A DNA stretch of 64,000 nucleotides, taken from the NCBI GenBank assembly GCA_963727805.1, contig CAVSHF010000003.1, forward strand, positions 1,952,001 through 2,016,000, read 5' to 3'. Position 1 is the stretch's first letter. Every line of letters begins with the position of its first letter. This stretch comes from an uncultured Nitrospiraceae bacterium (GTDB lineage Bacteria; Nitrospirota; Thermodesulfovibrionia; Thermodesulfovibrionales; Dissulfurispiraceae). This document shows positions 55,001 through 63,728 of the stretch, piece after piece. The notes under the pieces were generated by a model. It made no database searches. It was given only the letters and a program-made list of their open reading frames with translations, and was not told the DNA's origin. The position numbers and the translations under genes were made by a program.

Positions 55001-55219
55001 CACTGTGATATTCTTTTTTCGTGCACAAACGCGTCGACTGCAGCCAATGTGCTATATTTAACCCGGCTGGGCAGATGCCCGTCTCGGATTCCTAACAAAA
55101 TATCTCGATTAAATAACACATGAAAAATAATTGCCGATAATATTTACGGTCATAATCAATCGGCTACTCATTTCAGATTATCGATACTTGGCGTTTTACG
55201 AATGAGTAGTATTTATAGT

Positions 55220-55822
55220 AAACAACCACCGACTTTGCTGGTGGCTTTCCTAGAGAAGACAACAACTCTTGACAATGTCCTCCGCAGTTGTCCCATGGTC
55301 GTCGCTGTTCTTCCTTAATCTCTTCCTCTTGGTGCTTCCTCACGTATTCCCTTACAACTTCTTCGTTCAGCCCTACGGTATTTACACAATATCCTCTCAC
55401 CTAGATCTACATTCCCTAGTATTTCTTTGCCAGCTCAGGAAACTTACGGCCCAAATACTCCGCACTCTGCCCCTTCAATATCTTCATGACTTGAAGCGGT
55501 GAATGCTTGGGTGGTACTGAGAAATACATGTCAACGCGGTCTTCTTTGATTGCTCCTTCTAGTATTTTTATGCCATTCACATAGCTCCGTCAATATAACC
55601 TGGAGCCTCTCCCCAACCTCTGCTCCCAATACTTTGTATCTATATTTCGGCGCCCAGACAAAATGGTATTCGCACCCATAGACTACCTCAGAGGTCTTCA
55701 GAAATTTATTCATCGATTCTATGCTATGATAGGCCTCTCAGCTCGCCAACCTCCCCAGCTCACTTTCGATGTGCTGCCTCCGCCCCCACGGCCCACCACT
55801 GACATTGTCAGTGGTTTTGACC
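55220..55822 (-). mobile_element. tnpA: degenerate IS200-type element with frameshifted Y1 (HUH) tnpA and subterminal hairpins
   Basis: 55713: YHFVWAPKYRYKVL; further frames give ..LKGQSA.. and RGYCVNTVGLNEEVVREYVRKHQ with stops; hairpins CCACC-n9-GGTGG (55226-55244) and ACCACTGACA-T-TGTCAGTGGT (55795-55815). Confidence 0.8.
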
Positions 55823-57567: not shown

Positions 57568-57647
57568 TGTAAACCTCCTCTTTCGCTATACAGATAGTGA
57601 TTCATTCTTTTCATTCAACGTTCTACCCCATAAATATATGCTATTTC

Positions 57648-57702
57648 AATTAAGATTTAATTAAGATTTAATTAAGATTTAATTAAGATTTAATTAAGAT
57701 TT
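57648..57702. repeat. perfect tandem repeat (AATTAAGATTT) x5
   Basis: Five exact 11-bp units seen directly. Confidence 0.95.
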
Positions 57703-57846
57703 CTTCATTATTCTTTGTGACCGCAGAAAGGGACTCAACAACATGCTCCAGATGTTTTGCCTCAGACTCCGCGATTCTCGGAGCAGGGTATCTTTAATCT
57801 TCAATAAGAATATAGACAATTGCTATCATATATAGTATAATAAATC

Positions 57847-58443
57847 ATGAAATTATCGACATACGCAAAGCAATTAGGCATCAGCTATCAGACGGCATGG
57901 CGGCTATTCAAAGACGGCAAGCTCAATGCCTACAAGCTGCCCACGGGGACGGTCATTGTCCGCGAAGAAGAGTCCCAGGGTTCGGAACAGGCAGTTGGCG
58001 TTTACTGTCGGGTCTCTTGTTCTGAAAACAAGAACAACCTGGAATCACAGAAGCGCCGTCTTTTGGATTACTGTGCTGCAAAGGGATACAAAGTGAGCAG
58101 GGTTATAACCGAAGTAGGGTCTGGTATCAACGACACCCGTAAGCAATGGCTGTCTTTGCTACAGGATCGGACGGTAAGGATTATCGTTGTGGAGCACAAA
58201 GACAGGTTTACGCGGTTCGGGTTCACCGGATACAAGACCCTGCTGAATGCCGATGGGCGCGACATCCAGGTAGTCAACGAAGCGGACAATGGCAAGGAGG
58301 ATCTACTTCAGGATCTGGTGGCTATTATTACCTCCTTCTGTGCCAGACTTTATGGTCAGAGACGCTGCAAGAGAAAAACGGAAAAGATCATACAGGAATT
58401 GACAGCTGGCAAGCAGCAAAGCGTGGATGGACAAGACATATAA
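57847..58443 (+). CDS. tnpA: IS607-family transposase (N-terminal MerR-like HTH + serine recombinase)
   Basis: MKLSTYAKQLGISYQTAWR, YCRVS (catalytic Ser), EVGSGINDTRK, VEHKDRFTRFGF, DLVAIITSFCARLYGQR. Confidence 0.95.
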   Translation: MKLSTYAKQLGISYQTAWRLFKDGKLNAYKLPTGTVIVREEESQGSEQAVGVYCRVSCSENKNNLESQKRRLLDYCAAKGYKVSRVITEVGSGINDTRKQWLSLLQDRTVRIIVVEHKDRFTRFGFTGYKTLLNADGRDIQVVNEADNGKEDLLQDLVAIITSFCARLYGQRRCKRKTEKIIQELTAGKQQSVDGQDI

Positions 58444-60586
58444 GCTAAAACATCTTGCCAACAAAGGCAAGCAGGTGAAGGTCATCCAGACGATACGGGC
58501 TTATCGGGACACTGCCAGTCTTATTGCGTGGGATCAGTGGCGTTGCTTCTATGAGTCTGCTCAACCCTTCAATAAGCAATGTGACATCAAGCGTATTGAA
58601 ACACTACTATCTGAGCGCTTCAAGCAGACCTGTCAGTATCAGGTGGTTGGGGCACTGGATTCCTTCATTACCAATAGGCAGAATGATTTTATTTTTCATG
58701 TCCATCGCAGCAGTCTTGACCAGAACAGTAAACACCGGATGTTCACTATCAACAAGTATGGGTTGTGGTACAACAAGTACCCCTTCTCTATGTTGTTTGT
58801 GGCCAAAAAAGCGAAAAAGCGTGCGCAGAGTGATGACAAAGAGTATCTATATACGATCAAGCAGGGACTTACCATCGAGTCGGATGATCTGAAACTCTCC
58901 CGTAAGATATTCAACCACATCCTGTCCAAGCACCGTAAGCCTTCGTTTCAACACATCAATATGAATCTTGATAACAAAGTGGCGGTGATTTCGGGGAAGA
59001 TCCATGGCAAGGCAAGTGCTTTTGACTACTGGGTGCGGCTTTCCACTTTGGAGAAAGGCAAGCCCGTCTACATGCCTGTGGAGTCCAATGCGTATTTCGA
59101 TGACATTGCCGGCAGGCAGAAGAAGTTCTGTCAGGTGAATCTCAACGACAAAAACGAGATATCCATAAGCTTCATCAAAGACGTACCCGATCACAAGAAT
59201 GACTATGTCCCGGCGATTGACAAGATATGCGTGGACATCGGTCTTGTCACGGCAATGGCAACTGACAAGGGAGACCGGTTTGGCAGGGACTTTATGGGTC
59301 GGCTCCTGTATTACGACAACCGCATCAGTCCGCTTGCCGCAAACAGGCAGCGCCAGGGCTTGCCGGTGCGGAGCCCGAGGTACGACCACAGAGTCTCTGA
59401 ATTGAGGGATTACCTGAAGAACGAGATCAACAGGTTGTTCAACCGTATTAAAGAGATATATCTTCCCGCAGAGATAGTCGTCGAGAAGTTGGACTTTCGT
59501 AACCTCAATCTCTCAAAGAGAATGAATCGGCTGCTGTCCCGCTTTGGCAAGTCCTGTATTGTTGCCAAATTGAAGTCGCTGGAAGAAGAATTCGGGATTG
59601 TCACCAGATATGAGAATCCCGCATACACCTCTCAGCAATGCTCAGTATGCGGGTATGTGGACAAGAATAACCGTAAGTCTCAATCTGTTTTTGAGTGTAA
59701 GTTTTGTTTGTGCTGCGAGGTTGCAAAAGAGATGAAGGAAGGCCCTTCGGAATCGGCATGCAGGTGTTGATTTCAAACCGCCTCACGCTGCTTTAGATCG
59801 AAAGACTACGGTAGTGAACGGTTGAGGAAAAGGCGTACTAGATACGTCAGGTGTGGATCAAGAAGGTGAATGTTAAGTGAACCAATGTAAGCGTCGAAAT
59901 ACATTAGATGATGTCAAAATTGGAGTCTGCAAAATGCTCCAAGATTAGCTTAGGGGAAACCTGTTTACTGCCTAAGTGACATCCGGCGTAGAGTTGGCAC
60001 GAGCTTGATTCTGGCTCTTTTGTAAAACGTAGGAACTCTTTATGTGATGCTAAGGGAAAACTTTATAAGTGGCATCCCCACGAAGGAGGAAAGTACCGAT
60101 GCACATAAAGGGGGCGGATCATCTTGTAGTACCGATGAAGCGGTGATAATAAGCCGCGGAGGGAAGGAGATGAGCCAGTCCACAGAGAGTAACTGTCAAC
60201 TGGGCAACCAGGAGGAACTATCACTCAATGTGTAGTCTTGGGTCTAAGAGGATCTTAGAAGATGGCTGGCACGAGCCGGATGATGGGAGACTATCATGTC
60301 CGGTTCTGTGAGAGGCTGGAGGTGTAATTCCTCCGGCCTACTCGGCCATAGTATCATGCATGCGGATGTGAACGCCCCGCGAAACCTCAGCAAGAGAAGT
60401 TCTCTTGTTACTGCCCTTCCACTCTACATGTCTCATGCAAATATCCTTCGTGTCCTGACAAAGAGTTTTATCGACTCTTTATCAAGCATGGAGCGAAAGT
60501 ATCACCTGCGGCATAGTGACGCAGTCAGCTTACTGTCGGCCAACCCTTATTTCTCAGGGAATCTGGCACAGCTAAAAGGGTCGTAG
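58427..60586 (+). CDS. tnpB: TnpB RNA-guided nuclease, two exons (58427-59707 + 60347-60586; 506 aa spliced)
   Basis: RuvC-I CVDIG, RuvC-II VVEKLDF, PAYTSQQCSVCG...FECKFC in exon 1; HADVNA.RN (RuvC-III) in exon 2; joined exons are in frame. Confidence 0.88.
59708..60346 (+). mobile_element. ORF-less group II intron (IIB, RmInt1-like bacterial class D), 639 nt
   Basis: Domain V GAGCCGGATGATGGGAGACTATCATGTCCGGTTC (60273-60306, AGC triad); domain VI with bulged A60340, 7 nt from the end; 5' TTGTGCTGC; EBS1 GCAAAAT (59929-35) pairs exon GTTTTGT (59701-07); no RT ORF in domain IV. Confidence 0.9.
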
Positions 60587-61042
60587 TGGTCAATGAGATA
60601 TTTGACTATGAAAATTCTTACTATAAGCTTTTAACTTGAGGACAGCGTCCCAGAGGGTCATTATGCTTCTCAATCAACTGTCCAGCAAGCAGGGGGAAAG
60701 ATCTATGAGAAAATGCTGTTAAACATTCGGCTTACTCATCAAAACATGACGTGATCGGTCTGACTCGAAAAACGTTGACAAGGGGCCTCGATTAACTTCA
60801 AAAAGACGGCCTTATTTCGCCCCAAAAAAACAGAAGAATATGCCTCCAACTTTCCTTTTAAAAAGAATTTTCCCTTAAGAATTCGAAAATCTAATTAGAG
60901 GCACCGGAGTTCTCTGAGGCTAGCGCATTCTTCTTTTCTCAAATAATAAGGGAGTCCCGAAATAGCCAGAGTGTGATTGCTATCACGGAAACCATCTGCA
61001 TTATCTTTTATACTCCAATTTAGAGAGACGGATTTTATCCGT

Positions 61043-61136
61043 TAACCCGAAAAAGGCAAACCATCCGAAATGATGGGACGCAAAGCCACGGGCCTAAATC
61101 CTGTATGGACAAGGCAGCCGGGTTGCCGGGAGGTTA
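61043..61136 (+). promoter_or_regulatory. c-di-GMP-I (GEMM) riboswitch aptamer
   Basis: GGCAAACCATCC-GAAA-TGATGGGACGCAAAGCCACGGGCCTAA...GGCAGCCGGGTTGCC matches the GEMM consensus; lies in the 5' UTR of 61185. Confidence 0.92.
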
Positions 61137-61184
61137 GAGCACCTCCCATGGTCTTTAATCCCCAGTGGAGTCATGGAGGTGCAT

Positions 61185-63728
61185 ATGGTAGCAGAAAGTA
61201 TCACAGGACGAAGACTAAGCAAGGTATCATTTCGTATTTGCAATCCTGTGCTGGCTCTTCTGACCGTATTGATGCTTACTTTACCGATGTCCGTTGAAAA
61301 TGCCTTTTCAGCAGTAACCCTGAACTGGACTGCTCCGAGCACGAACACAGATGGAACACCGCTGACAGACCTTTCTGGATATAATCTTTATTATGGAACT
61401 TCTTCCGGTACTTACACTAATTCAATTACTCTCACCAATGTAATAACCTATACGCTTAACAACCTCTCCAACGGCACATATTATTTTGTTGTAACTGCAT
61501 ATACAACCGCAGGATTAGAGAGTACCCCCTCGAATGAGGTTTCAAAAACGGAATCATTGCCTTCTGACACAACTCCTCCGACAGTGAACGCTTTCACTAT
61601 TCCGCCCACTGCAACGTCTTTGCCCGTATCGATCACCAGTTTTACTGCAACGGATGACGTCGGGGTGACGGGTTATCTGGTAAACGAATCCGCCACCACA
61701 CCAGCCGCTTCAGCAGCTGGATGGTCTGCAACCGCTCCCACTTCCTACACCTTCACTACCGCTGGCACCAAAACACTCTATGCCTGGGCTAAAGACGCAG
61801 CCGGTAATGTATCGACCAGTCTCAGTGCTTCGGTTACCATCACCATTGACACTACGGCTCCCACAGTGACTGGTTTCACTATTCCGGCTACTGCAACCTC
61901 TTTGACCGTATTGATCACCAGTTTAACAGCAACTGATAACATCGGAGTGACCGGTTATCTGGTAAACGAATCGGCCACGGCGCCAGCCGCTTCAGCCGCA
62001 GGATGGTCTGCAACCGCTCCCACTTCCCACACCTTCACTACCGCTGGCACCAAAACACTCTATGCCTGGGCTAAAGACGCAGCCGGTAATGTATCGACTA
62101 GCAGAACCGCAAGCACTACCATTACATTGCCCGATACAACTCCTCCGTTAGTGACAGTTTTCACTATTCCGGCTACTGCAACCTCTTTGACCGTATCGAT
62201 CACCAGTTTAACAGCAACTGATAACGTCGGAGTGACCGGTTATCTGGTAAACGAATCGGCCACGGCGCCAGCCGCTTCAGCCGCAGGATGGTCTGCAACC
62301 GCTCCCACTTCCCACACCTTCACTACCGCTGGCACCAAAACACTCTATGCCTGGGCTAAAGACGCAGCCGGTAATGTATCGACTAGCAGAACCGCAAGCA
62401 CTACCATTACATTGCCCGATACAACTCCTCCGTTAGTGACAGTTTTCACTATTCCGGCTACTGCAACCTCTTTGACCATATCGATCACCAGTTTAACAGC
62501 AACTGATAACGTCGGAGTGACCGGTTATCTGGTAAACGAATCGGCCACGGCGCCAGCCGCTTCAGCCGCAGGATGGTCTGCAACCGCTCCCACTTCCCAC
62601 ACCTTCACTACCGCTGGCACCAAAACACTCTATGCCTGGGCTAAAGACGCAGCCGGTAATGTATCGACCAGTCTCAGTGCTTCGGTTACCATCACCATTG
62701 ACACTACGGCTCCCACAGTGACTGGTTTCACTATGCCTGCCACTGCAACTTCACTCAATGTTCCGATTACCCTTTTCACCGCCACGGATAACATAGCAGT
62801 AACTGGATATATTGTTACAGAGACTGCAACTGCGCCTGCTACCTCCGCTGCAGGATGGTCTGCAACCGCCCCGACATCGCACACGACCTCTGCAGCAGGC
62901 AGCAGAACCTTCTATGCCTGGGCCAAAGATGCAGCTGGCAAAGTGTCGACAAGCATGAGCGCTACGGTTTCGATAACTGCCAAACAATCATATAGAGGTG
63001 TCTTTAGAAAAGGTATATGGTACATGGATATGAATCAAAACGGTATTTGGGATGCAAGTGCGGACACTGCTAGTCCCTTTGGAACAGCCGGAGACATACC
63101 AGTCATGGGTGATTGGGACGGCACTGGCACGAAAAAGATCGGCGTATTCAGAAACGGCATGTGGTATCTCGATATGAATGGGAATAATGCATGGGATCCG
63201 GGTGTTGATGTAGCAATTCCCTTCGGTACAGCCGGGGATATCCCCGTTGTCGGCGACTGGAATGGTGACGGAAGAACCAAGATCGGCGTCTTCAGGAACG
63301 GGATGTGGTATCTTGACTATTCTGGCACGTACCTTGCCACGGGCACATGGGCTAGCTGCGGAGCGCCTACTGATCCGACGAAAGCGGCCTGTATATCTTT
63401 CGGTGTGGCCGGTGACATCCCCGTTGTCGGCAACTGGAATGGCAGTGTAGATGGCAAGTCCGAGATCGGCGTCTTCAGAAATGGGTATTGGTACCTTGAT
63501 ACCAACGGGAATAATGCATGGGATCCGGGTGTTGATGCAGCGATTCCCTTCGGTACAGCTGAGGATATCCCTGTTGTCGGCGACTGGAATGGTGATGGAA
63601 AGACAAAGATCGGCGTCTTCAGAAATGGGTATTGGTACGTTGATACTAACGGAAATAATGCTTGGGACCCGGAGATTGATTCTGTGATGACTTGGGGAAT
63701 GGCAGGGGACAAGCCAATCGTAAAATAA
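61185..63728 (+). CDS. secreted protein: FN3 domain + five Ig-like repeats + five FG-GAP-like repeats
   Basis: ATG 61185 after GGAGGT; signal peptide; VTLNWTAP..DLSGY..YYGT..TYYFVVTAY..ES..SNEV; DTTxP..ATDNVGVTGY..YAWAKDAAGN x5; GVFRNG.WY.D..GDIPVVGDW repeats. Confidence 0.85.
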   Translation: MVAESITGRRLSKVSFRICNPVLALLTVLMLTLPMSVENAFSAVTLNWTAPSTNTDGTPLTDLSGYNLYYGTSSGTYTNSITLTNVITYTLNNLSNGTYYFVVTAYTTAGLESTPSNEVSKTESLPSDTTPPTVNAFTIPPTATSLPVSITSFTATDDVGVTGYLVNESATTPAASAAGWSATAPTSYTFTTAGTKTLYAWAKDAAGNVSTSLSASVTITIDTTAPTVTGFTIPATATSLTVLITSLTATDNIGVTGYLVNESATAPAASAAGWSATAPTSHTFTTAGTKTLYAWAKDAAGNVSTSRTASTTITLPDTTPPLVTVFTIPATATSLTVSITSLTATDNVGVTGYLVNESATAPAASAAGWSATAPTSHTFTTAGTKTLYAWAKDAAGNVSTSRTASTTITLPDTTPPLVTVFTIPATATSLTISITSLTATDNVGVTGYLVNESATAPAASAAGWSATAPTSHTFTTAGTKTLYAWAKDAAGNVSTSLSASVTITIDTTAPTVTGFTMPATATSLNVPITLFTATDNIAVTGYIVTETATAPATSAAGWSATAPTSHTTSAAGSRTFYAWAKDAAGKVSTSMSATVSITAKQSYRGVFRKGIWYMDMNQNGIWDASADTASPFGTAGDIPVMGDWDGTGTKKIGVFRNGMWYLDMNGNNAWDPGVDVAIPFGTAGDIPVVGDWNGDGRTKIGVFRNGMWYLDYSGTYLATGTWASCGAPTDPTKAACISFGVAGDIPVVGNWNGSVDGKSEIGVFRNGYWYLDTNGNNAWDPGVDAAIPFGTAEDIPVVGDWNGDGKTKIGVFRNGYWYVDTNGNNAWDPEIDSVMTWGMAGDKPIVK
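61566..62985 (+). repeat. five 282/285-bp coding repeats
   Basis: Units start at 61566, 61848, 62133, 62418, 62700. Confidence 0.92.

Follow-up and report, generated by a model that had tools for sequence, protein, structure and literature searches.

Does the intron that splits the tnpB gene of an IS607-family element in an uncultured Nitrospiraceae genome act as a switch on an RNA-guided nuclease, or is it one selfish element lodged in another? In the window, by which we mean the whole 64,000-nt stretch of DNA that was analysed, the preliminary description had noted a 447-aa open reading frame (58427-59770) and a separate 96-aa frame (60296-60586), both of which are present, and had proposed that an ORF-less group II intron lies between the coding parts, that its removal restores a complete TnpB, and that splicing could switch the nuclease on. 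The element and its genes are arranged as follows:

57811..60625, + strand: IS607-family element, 2176 nt without the intron, with TATA at both ends
57813..57841, + strand: candidate sigma-70-like promoter at the left end, upstream of tnpA-tnpB (consensus match only, 11 of 12 bases)
57847..58443, + strand: tnpA, intact IS607 serine transposase of 198 aa (NCBIfam NF033518, 182.5 bits, cut-off 110; Pfam Resolvase)
58427..59707, + strand: tnpB exon 1, 427 codons, with RuvC-I Asp (59234), RuvC-II Glu (59483) and both CxxC pairs
59708..60346, + strand: group IIB intron of 639 nt without an ORF, RmInt1-like and, judging from its relatives, probably of class D, with ends UUGUG...GC
60347..60586, + strand: tnpB exon 2, 79 codons and stop, with RuvC-III Asp (60365) and the C-terminal helices

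The element limits (57811 and 60625) are the positions at which identity to a second IS607 copy in the same genome (5 contigs) begins and ends; comparison of the two copies by eye revealed neither terminal inverted repeats nor a target duplication of the IS607 element. This sister copy (G000:C3:307884-305709) has no intron, and its continuous tnpB lies under the same promoter region as the interrupted copy; the search that yielded the sigma-70-like promoter found 4 sites vs. 4.6 expected in shuffled sequences. The tnpB gene overlaps tnpA, downstream of it, and encodes the RuvC D-E-D residues and a zinc ribbon; NCBIfam TnpB models match it with scores below their cut-offs. The structural model of the sister TnpB, with a pLDDT of 92 and 102 sequences in its alignment, is similar to structures of Cas12f and TnpB, among them that of the IS607 TnpB ISFba1. 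Around the element, an 11-base AT-rich unit is repeated head to tail about five times at 57647-57702, 110 bases to the left of the element; two short minus-strand ORFs (55173-55713) may be pieces of an IS200-type transposase; and a c-di-GMP-I-GGC riboswitch (61046-61131) stands ahead of a secreted-looking 851-aa protein (61173-63728) with fibronectin III, Ig-like and FG-GAP-like repeats.

The sister allele fixes the intron to the base. Its sequence corresponds to exon 1 until C3:305988 and to exon 2 from C3:305987, with zero bases gained or lost; because this junction is base-exact, the boundaries 59708 and 60346 are unique and there is no target duplication. Other boundaries (a start at GUGCU, 59710, and an end at ...CCAU) were considered and excluded, as the sister permits 59708-60346 only. 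Removal of this segment joins 427 and 79 codons in frame into the predicted 506 aa, and the catalytic codons GAC (59234), GAG (59483) and GAT (60365), as well as both CxxC pairs in exon 1, are where the preliminary description had placed them. The sister TnpB has 505 aa, the joined exons differing from it by a one-codon indel. Identity between the two copies is 94% in one exon block and 97% in the other, and near the junction they differ at exon positions -9, +3 and +8; the exon 1 protein is 91.8% identical to the sister TnpB, and exon 2 carries 3 synonymous and 4 non-synonymous changes. No decay was seen in the exons of the interrupted tnpB, which fits a recent insertion and also continued use. 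The 96-aa frame was rejected as a gene of its own: its ATG lies within intron domain V, and the frame is an ORF-calling artefact.

In the unspliced message, the tnpB frame stops 20 residues into the intron, and its product lacks the RuvC-III aspartate (Asp in 96 of the 102 aligned homologues) and an invariant arginine (102 of 102). By the sister model, exon 2 encodes the RuvC-III helix and three C-terminal helices, all missing from the 447-aa product. Exon 2 probably also overlaps the guide-RNA scaffold, as judged from the 39 nt between its end and the right end of the element and from a weak fold signal (z -2.41); no Rfam family of guide RNA matched at the right end, and the reach of the scaffold was not apparent from an alignment of six right ends.

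The intron lies in sense orientation in tnpB, after the zinc ribbon and ahead of the RuvC-III aspartate. The Rfam family group-II-D1D4-2 (RF01999) matches at 59734-59852 with 95.1 bits (gathering 36), and the Intron_gpII scan (RF00029) suggested by the preliminary description gives a match of 59.9 bits at 60271-60346 (gathering 40). No group I intron family of Rfam matched in the window, so the locus falls outside the definition of an IStron: its intron is group II and internal to tnpB. The predicted fold of the intron region beats 20 of 20 shuffles (z -4.98). A public DNA contig (run X1) is identical to 59669-59819, with 0 differences across the 5' junction, and is not independent support, since X1 may be the source sample. 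The ribozyme and its target in exon 1 can be divided as follows:

59694..59699, + strand: IBS2, positions -14 to -9, 6 of 6 pairs with EBS2
59702..59707, + strand: IBS1, positions -6 to -1, 6 of 6 pairs with EBS1, one of them G-U
59713..60032, + strand: domain I, closing helices I(i) and I(ii) with 5 of 5 and 11 of 11 pairs
Domain I elements, + strand, placed from alignments: epsilon-prime 59818-59819, EBS2 59900-59905, delta-prime 59906, delta 59928, EBS1 59929-59934, EBS3 59991
60036..60173, + strand: domain II (60036-60112) and domain III (60119-60173) with the J2/3 linker, closing helices with 11 of 11 and 7 of 7 pairs
60175..60269, + strand: domain IV, short and without an ORF, retaining a DIVa-like stem and a ribosome-binding-like motif
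60273..60346, + strand: domain V (AGC triad 60274-60276) and domain VI (bulged branch A 60340)

The six-domain group II structure is complete, domains V and VI are regular, the closing helix of domain IV is fully paired, and the branch A is the seventh base from the intron end. Because domains I to VI, the branch A and the pairings with the exons are all preserved, the intron probably homed here and probably can splice, the likely aid being an RT supplied in trans from elsewhere in the genome.

The register of the EBS/IBS pairings was taken from the ten target sites of a ten-copy intron family in the same genome and from alignments. EBS3 of the tnpB intron pairs (1 of 1) with exon position +1, and its delta pairing is present as well. 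In an alignment of 20 introns, EBS3 and the opening base of exon 2 are Watson-Crick partners in all 20, with all four pair types represented, and this speaks for the 3' ends; the epsilon pairing, likewise possible in all 20, speaks for the 5' ends. Only 3 of the 2132 other genome sites with the IBS1/IBS3 motif match equally well at IBS2, which indicates that the intron is fitted to its tnpB site. The sister allele has an IBS2 mismatch at -9, a position invariant in 10 of 10 sites of the ten-copy family, and this may be why the sister stays uninvaded. The EBS match to a site common in the IS607 tnpB family suggests a tnpB specialist and not a stray landing, a point that we count against reading the locus as simple parasitism; a second occupied site for this intron was not found.

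Besides the tnpB intron, which is single-copy, the genome holds other introns, with 15 matches to RF00029 in all. Ten are 638-nt ORF-less copies at most 1 base apart, at unrelated sites with a common target consensus:

G000:C3:611977, 743947, 793991, 887189, 1320471, 2248043, 2274162; C5:35426, 63431, 400663: sites of the ten-copy intron family

Domain IV of this family is nearly the same as that of the tnpB intron. The family presumably represents a very recent burst driven by two introns that encode a 412-aa RT and are 99.9% identical (C3:1128094 and C5:46945); the other residents are one more ORF-less intron and one with a 490-aa RT. The 412-aa RT is 57% identical to the RT of a multi-copy intron of Sinorhizobium meliloti plasmids (77 Sinorhizobium records among 455), which we take to be RmInt1 of class D. 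RT-encoding relatives with the same ends as the tnpB intron are 43-55% identical to the 412-aa RT. The presence of RT-encoding introns together with ORF-less copies makes mobilisation and splicing of the tnpB intron in trans plausible, and a review reports that ORF-less bacterial introns nearly always reside beside such helpers (PMC4424553). At the ribozyme level, the tnpB intron is 64% identical to the 412-aa-RT intron and 76% to the ten-copy family, and the ten-copy family is 80% identical to the 412-aa-RT intron. To judge from its single copy and this identity of 64% vs. 80%, the resident RT may be unsuited to the tnpB intron. An RT-encoding intron with UUGUG...GC ends is absent from the genome.

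These ends, about which the preliminary description was silent, depart from the group II consensus: UUGUG...GC, as fixed by the sister allele, vs. GUGYG...AY, which is a consensus with published exceptions and not a strict criterion. The first and penultimate intron nucleotides are reported to interact in the second splicing step, and in RmInt1 a penultimate G combined with G1 is reported to impair that step strongly (PMC4238363). U1 together with a penultimate G is thus a paired change of two interacting terminal nucleotides. A GTDB scan for ...RGC ends returned at least 122 stretches; of the 80 examined, 41 had a 5' domain (33 TTGTG, 1 GTGTG and 7 undecided), and some genomes contribute several of these copies, so that the stretches are not independent. 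Among introns not selected by their 3' end, a penultimate G was found in 6 of 6 with U1 and in 0 of 7 with G1, the six U1 introns being the query, the inner intron of locus L186, L180, L181, L020 and L396, five of which belong to one clade. In a tree of 32 ribozymes, built with the end bases left out and with a poorly supported backbone, U1 introns are spread over a number of well-supported subclades, whose members come from Bacteroidota, Planctomycetota, Actinomycetota, Pseudomonadota and Acidobacteriota. On this tree the U1/G1 label requires 4 changes; well-supported branches force at least 2 of them, one being that of a lone G1 intron (L063) that retains the penultimate G. A repeated origin of U...G ends is possible on this phylogeny. 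The widespread RmInt1-like introns with these ends (L058-L137, L180-L188, L020, L396) are either ORF-less, of about 620-665 nt, or RT-encoding, of about 1.9 kb. In the open literature we found one published example of U1 with a penultimate G, and others may be known to specialists: UHB.I2, a single CL1 intron with ends UUGCG...GU, reported as a lone oddity (PMC7923331). It is likewise a IIB intron with U first and G penultimate, but is of class CL1, encodes an RT and sits in an integron array (PMC7923331).

Related introns occupy repeated sequences of several kinds. A metagenome scan with the 5' motif returned 9 loci, 3 in a palindrome and 6 directly behind a hairpin that, from its motif, we take to be an IS605-like end; at 0 of these 9 loci was a related intron found at a tnpB zinc ribbon. 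The three introns in the palindrome (L180, L181, L183) are full-length, with 76-77% identity, and their EBS1 is complementary to a palindrome arm. The palindrome is also scattered in 2 of the 5 genomes searched, where empty repeats occur (L390-L393) and no obvious transposase lies beside it; we read it as REP-like. The six loci behind the hairpin are L182 and L184-L188, three of them with a tnpB remnant downstream. Several introns at such hairpin ends (L182, L184-L188, L021, L056) are truncated or hold a second intron. The closest relative of the tnpB intron (86% identity) belongs to a twintron inside one of the six hairpin-end loci, and U...G-end introns L064, L065, L097, L128, L132 and L136 lie directly behind domain V of other group II introns, again as twintrons. 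From their flanks, some relatives in the genome collection appear to lie in dispersed repeats. These relatives follow the pattern of introns redirected, through changes in their EBS, to DNA that is repeated and dispensable, as has been shown for Thermosynechococcus (PMC2882425).

Comparison with homologous loci shows that the interruption is rare. The 447-aa product is recorded on one contig only. Its cluster has 23 members, and among the 15 listed, the other 13 continue uninterrupted across the junction. None of the 120 homologues listed has a tail resembling intron read-through, and the junctions in two kin genomes (G003 and G004) are intron-free. Such an intron was found at 0 of 80 tnpB loci on viral contigs. 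With the query and a single fragment that precedes a tnpB remnant set aside, the count among kin loci was 0 of 20. The 5' pattern of the intron occurred in 0 of 400 other genomes of the phylum, a sample that excluded G004, which matches by sequence, and none was found in viral contigs. A TnpB profile gave no match to the 80 genome loci with ...RGC intron ends, and tnpB was nearby in 0 of 80. A loose pattern (any group II intron end followed by a RuvC-III motif), applied to viral contigs only, gave at least 120 matches, and 0 of the 80 examined encode TnpB. A position conserved across relatives, the mark of a regulatory or domesticated intron, was thus not observed. One TnpB relative (P0005, 432 aa, 79% identical) ends after the first CxxC in an unrelated tail, which points to another insertion near the same place in this gene family. 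One viral contig (L341:2700-4900) carries two different tnpB genes back to back.

Public sequencing runs were searched for the junction in 4 of the 24 listed, all four in the form of contigs, with word shares of 0.09-0.27. Joined forms in the RNA runs X15 and X16 were considered as evidence of splicing and rejected, as they also occur in the DNA runs X1 and X2 and mostly carry sister-type bases; the joined forms in public runs are intron-free alleles or indistinguishable from them. Intron-free alleles prevail in the kin genomes and in all 4 runs.

The nesting of a group II intron in a mobile element is of a known kind, with the unusual intron ends as its variant feature. The "reversed" IStron nesting inferred in the preliminary description has precedents, as group II introns within IS605 transposons (PMC4810608) and within an IS200-family element (PMC2882425) had already been published; in our search of the literature on group II introns with TnpB, IS605 or IS200, we came across no description of an IS607 tnpB that carries an ORF-less intron at this position. 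The IS605-borne introns share with the present one their nesting in a TnpB-type transposon, but are reported to encode an RT-HNH protein, whereas the intron described here is ORF-less and in IS607 (PMC4810608). RmInt1 of Sinorhizobium meliloti (class D / IIB3) is reported in ISRm2011-2, where the IS gene product needs splicing (PMC4238363). It belongs to the same broad IIB ribozyme class and likewise lies within an IS gene with a splice-dependent product, whereas the tnpB intron has no ORF, has UUGUG...GC ends (against a final CC in RmInt1) and lies in the gene for the accessory nuclease TnpB instead of that for the transposase. The TeI3 introns of Thermosynechococcus elongatus, of which family F4 is reported in the IS200-family element ISEL1 and F3 in twintrons, are also ORF-less, depend on a driver RT in trans and were retargeted to introns and IS elements by EBS change; they differ in their origin, which lies in cyanobacterial RT introns that possess an endonuclease domain, the 412-aa RT of the present genome being RmInt1-like, and splicing in trans is shown for TeI3, whereas for the tnpB intron we infer it (PMC2882425). 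In the mitochondrion of Chaetomium thermophilum (mS1247), a group IIA1 intron lies in the ORF of the homing endonuclease I-CthI, which is likewise a selfish endonuclease made only after group II splicing; that nuclease is protein-guided and fungal, and its tunability was reported from E. coli constructs (PMC4801052). IStrons of the IS607 type also combine a self-splicing intron with TnpA and TnpB in one locus, but there a group I intron takes the whole element out of the host message, whereas the group II intron described here excises only itself from the tnpB message (PMC10690162).

Taken together, these findings lead us to regard the locus as probably one selfish element parasitising another, a mobile ORF-less intron in one of two IS607 copies, with the splice dependence of TnpB as a by-product and not a regulated switch. 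The locus itself displays a precise insertion, an intact ribozyme, a matched target, the loss of RuvC-III from the unspliced frame and an intact sister gene. On this parasitic reading, an RmInt1-like ORF-less intron would have retrohomed, with a borrowed RT, into one of the two copies, at the tnpB codons for the zinc ribbon; the IS promoter would transcribe it, and the RT/maturase of another intron, or self-splicing, would remove it at low efficiency, yet often enough for persistence. Low splicing is assumed by analogy with RmInt1, for which 0.07% is reported in ISRm2011-2 (PMC3035460). The tnpB allele would then be mostly silenced, with a trickle of full-length enzyme, and the cost would be small if the sister supplies uninterrupted TnpB, a complementation made plausible by the report that guide RNAs can be served in trans (PMC10055086). 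That the insertion is instead a dead end, the intron having come with the IS or with a now-absent helper RT and one tnpB allele having been inactivated with no splicing here, strikes us as unlikely. The lack of a resident RT-encoding intron with the same ends, the identity of only 64% to the RT-encoding intron and the impaired second step of RmInt1 with a penultimate G beside G1 (PMC4238363) all speak for it; however, every helix and long-range pairing is preserved, DIVa hardly differs from that of the recently spread ten-copy family, and the penultimate G accompanies U1 in many multi-copy relatives, so that the pair is evidently workable.

The preliminary description was right in that the interrupted copy can give a complete TnpB only via splicing, but an evolved switch, in which regulated splicing turns the RNA-guided nuclease on under some conditions to the benefit of the IS or its host, seems to us very improbable. 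The interrupted allele is a singleton among prevailing intron-free alleles, the viral-contig tnpB loci (0 of 80) and the other genomes of the phylum (0 of 400) gave no second case, the closest introns lie elsewhere, and the sister gene would bypass any such control; these points outweigh the splitting off of the third catalytic residue by the intron and the intact state of both exons and of tnpA. A further point in favour of a switch is that a group II intron occurring naturally within the ORF of a homing endonuclease is reported to be magnesium-tunable in E. coli (PMC4801052). An engineered intron switch for Cas12 has reportedly been made. We give hardly any credence to a two-product locus, in which the unspliced 447-aa protein would bind guide RNA and DNA as a nuclease-dead, TldR-like competitor or repressor and the spliced form would cut: exon 1 does retain the N-terminal lobes, RuvC-I/II and all four zinc cysteines, but what the short product loses is the RuvC-III helix and three more helices, not one residue, and it is known from a single contig. 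The IStron and TldR readings were thus considered and ranked low.

As posed, the question of the switch carries little weight, the locus being one more intron in a mobile element. What could matter is that the intron is small (639 nt) and divides TnpB at the final catalytic residue, while a nearly identical copy without an intron is at hand in the genome as a control; the pair is a convenient natural test of whether introns damp TnpB-driven transposon retention. More tentatively, and as a reading that we hold to be less likely than not, the U...G-end introns may be an undescribed but widespread RmInt1-like set that underwent a joint G...A to U...G switch, possibly more than once, and was retargeted to other selfish repeats, its tnpB member being a zinc-ribbon specialist that splices enough for a splice-dependent RNA-guided nuclease. 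U...G introns are missed by boundary callers that expect GUGYG...AY, and the natural combination of U1 with a penultimate G could serve ribozyme specialists for testing the contact between the first and penultimate nucleotides on which exon ligation depends.
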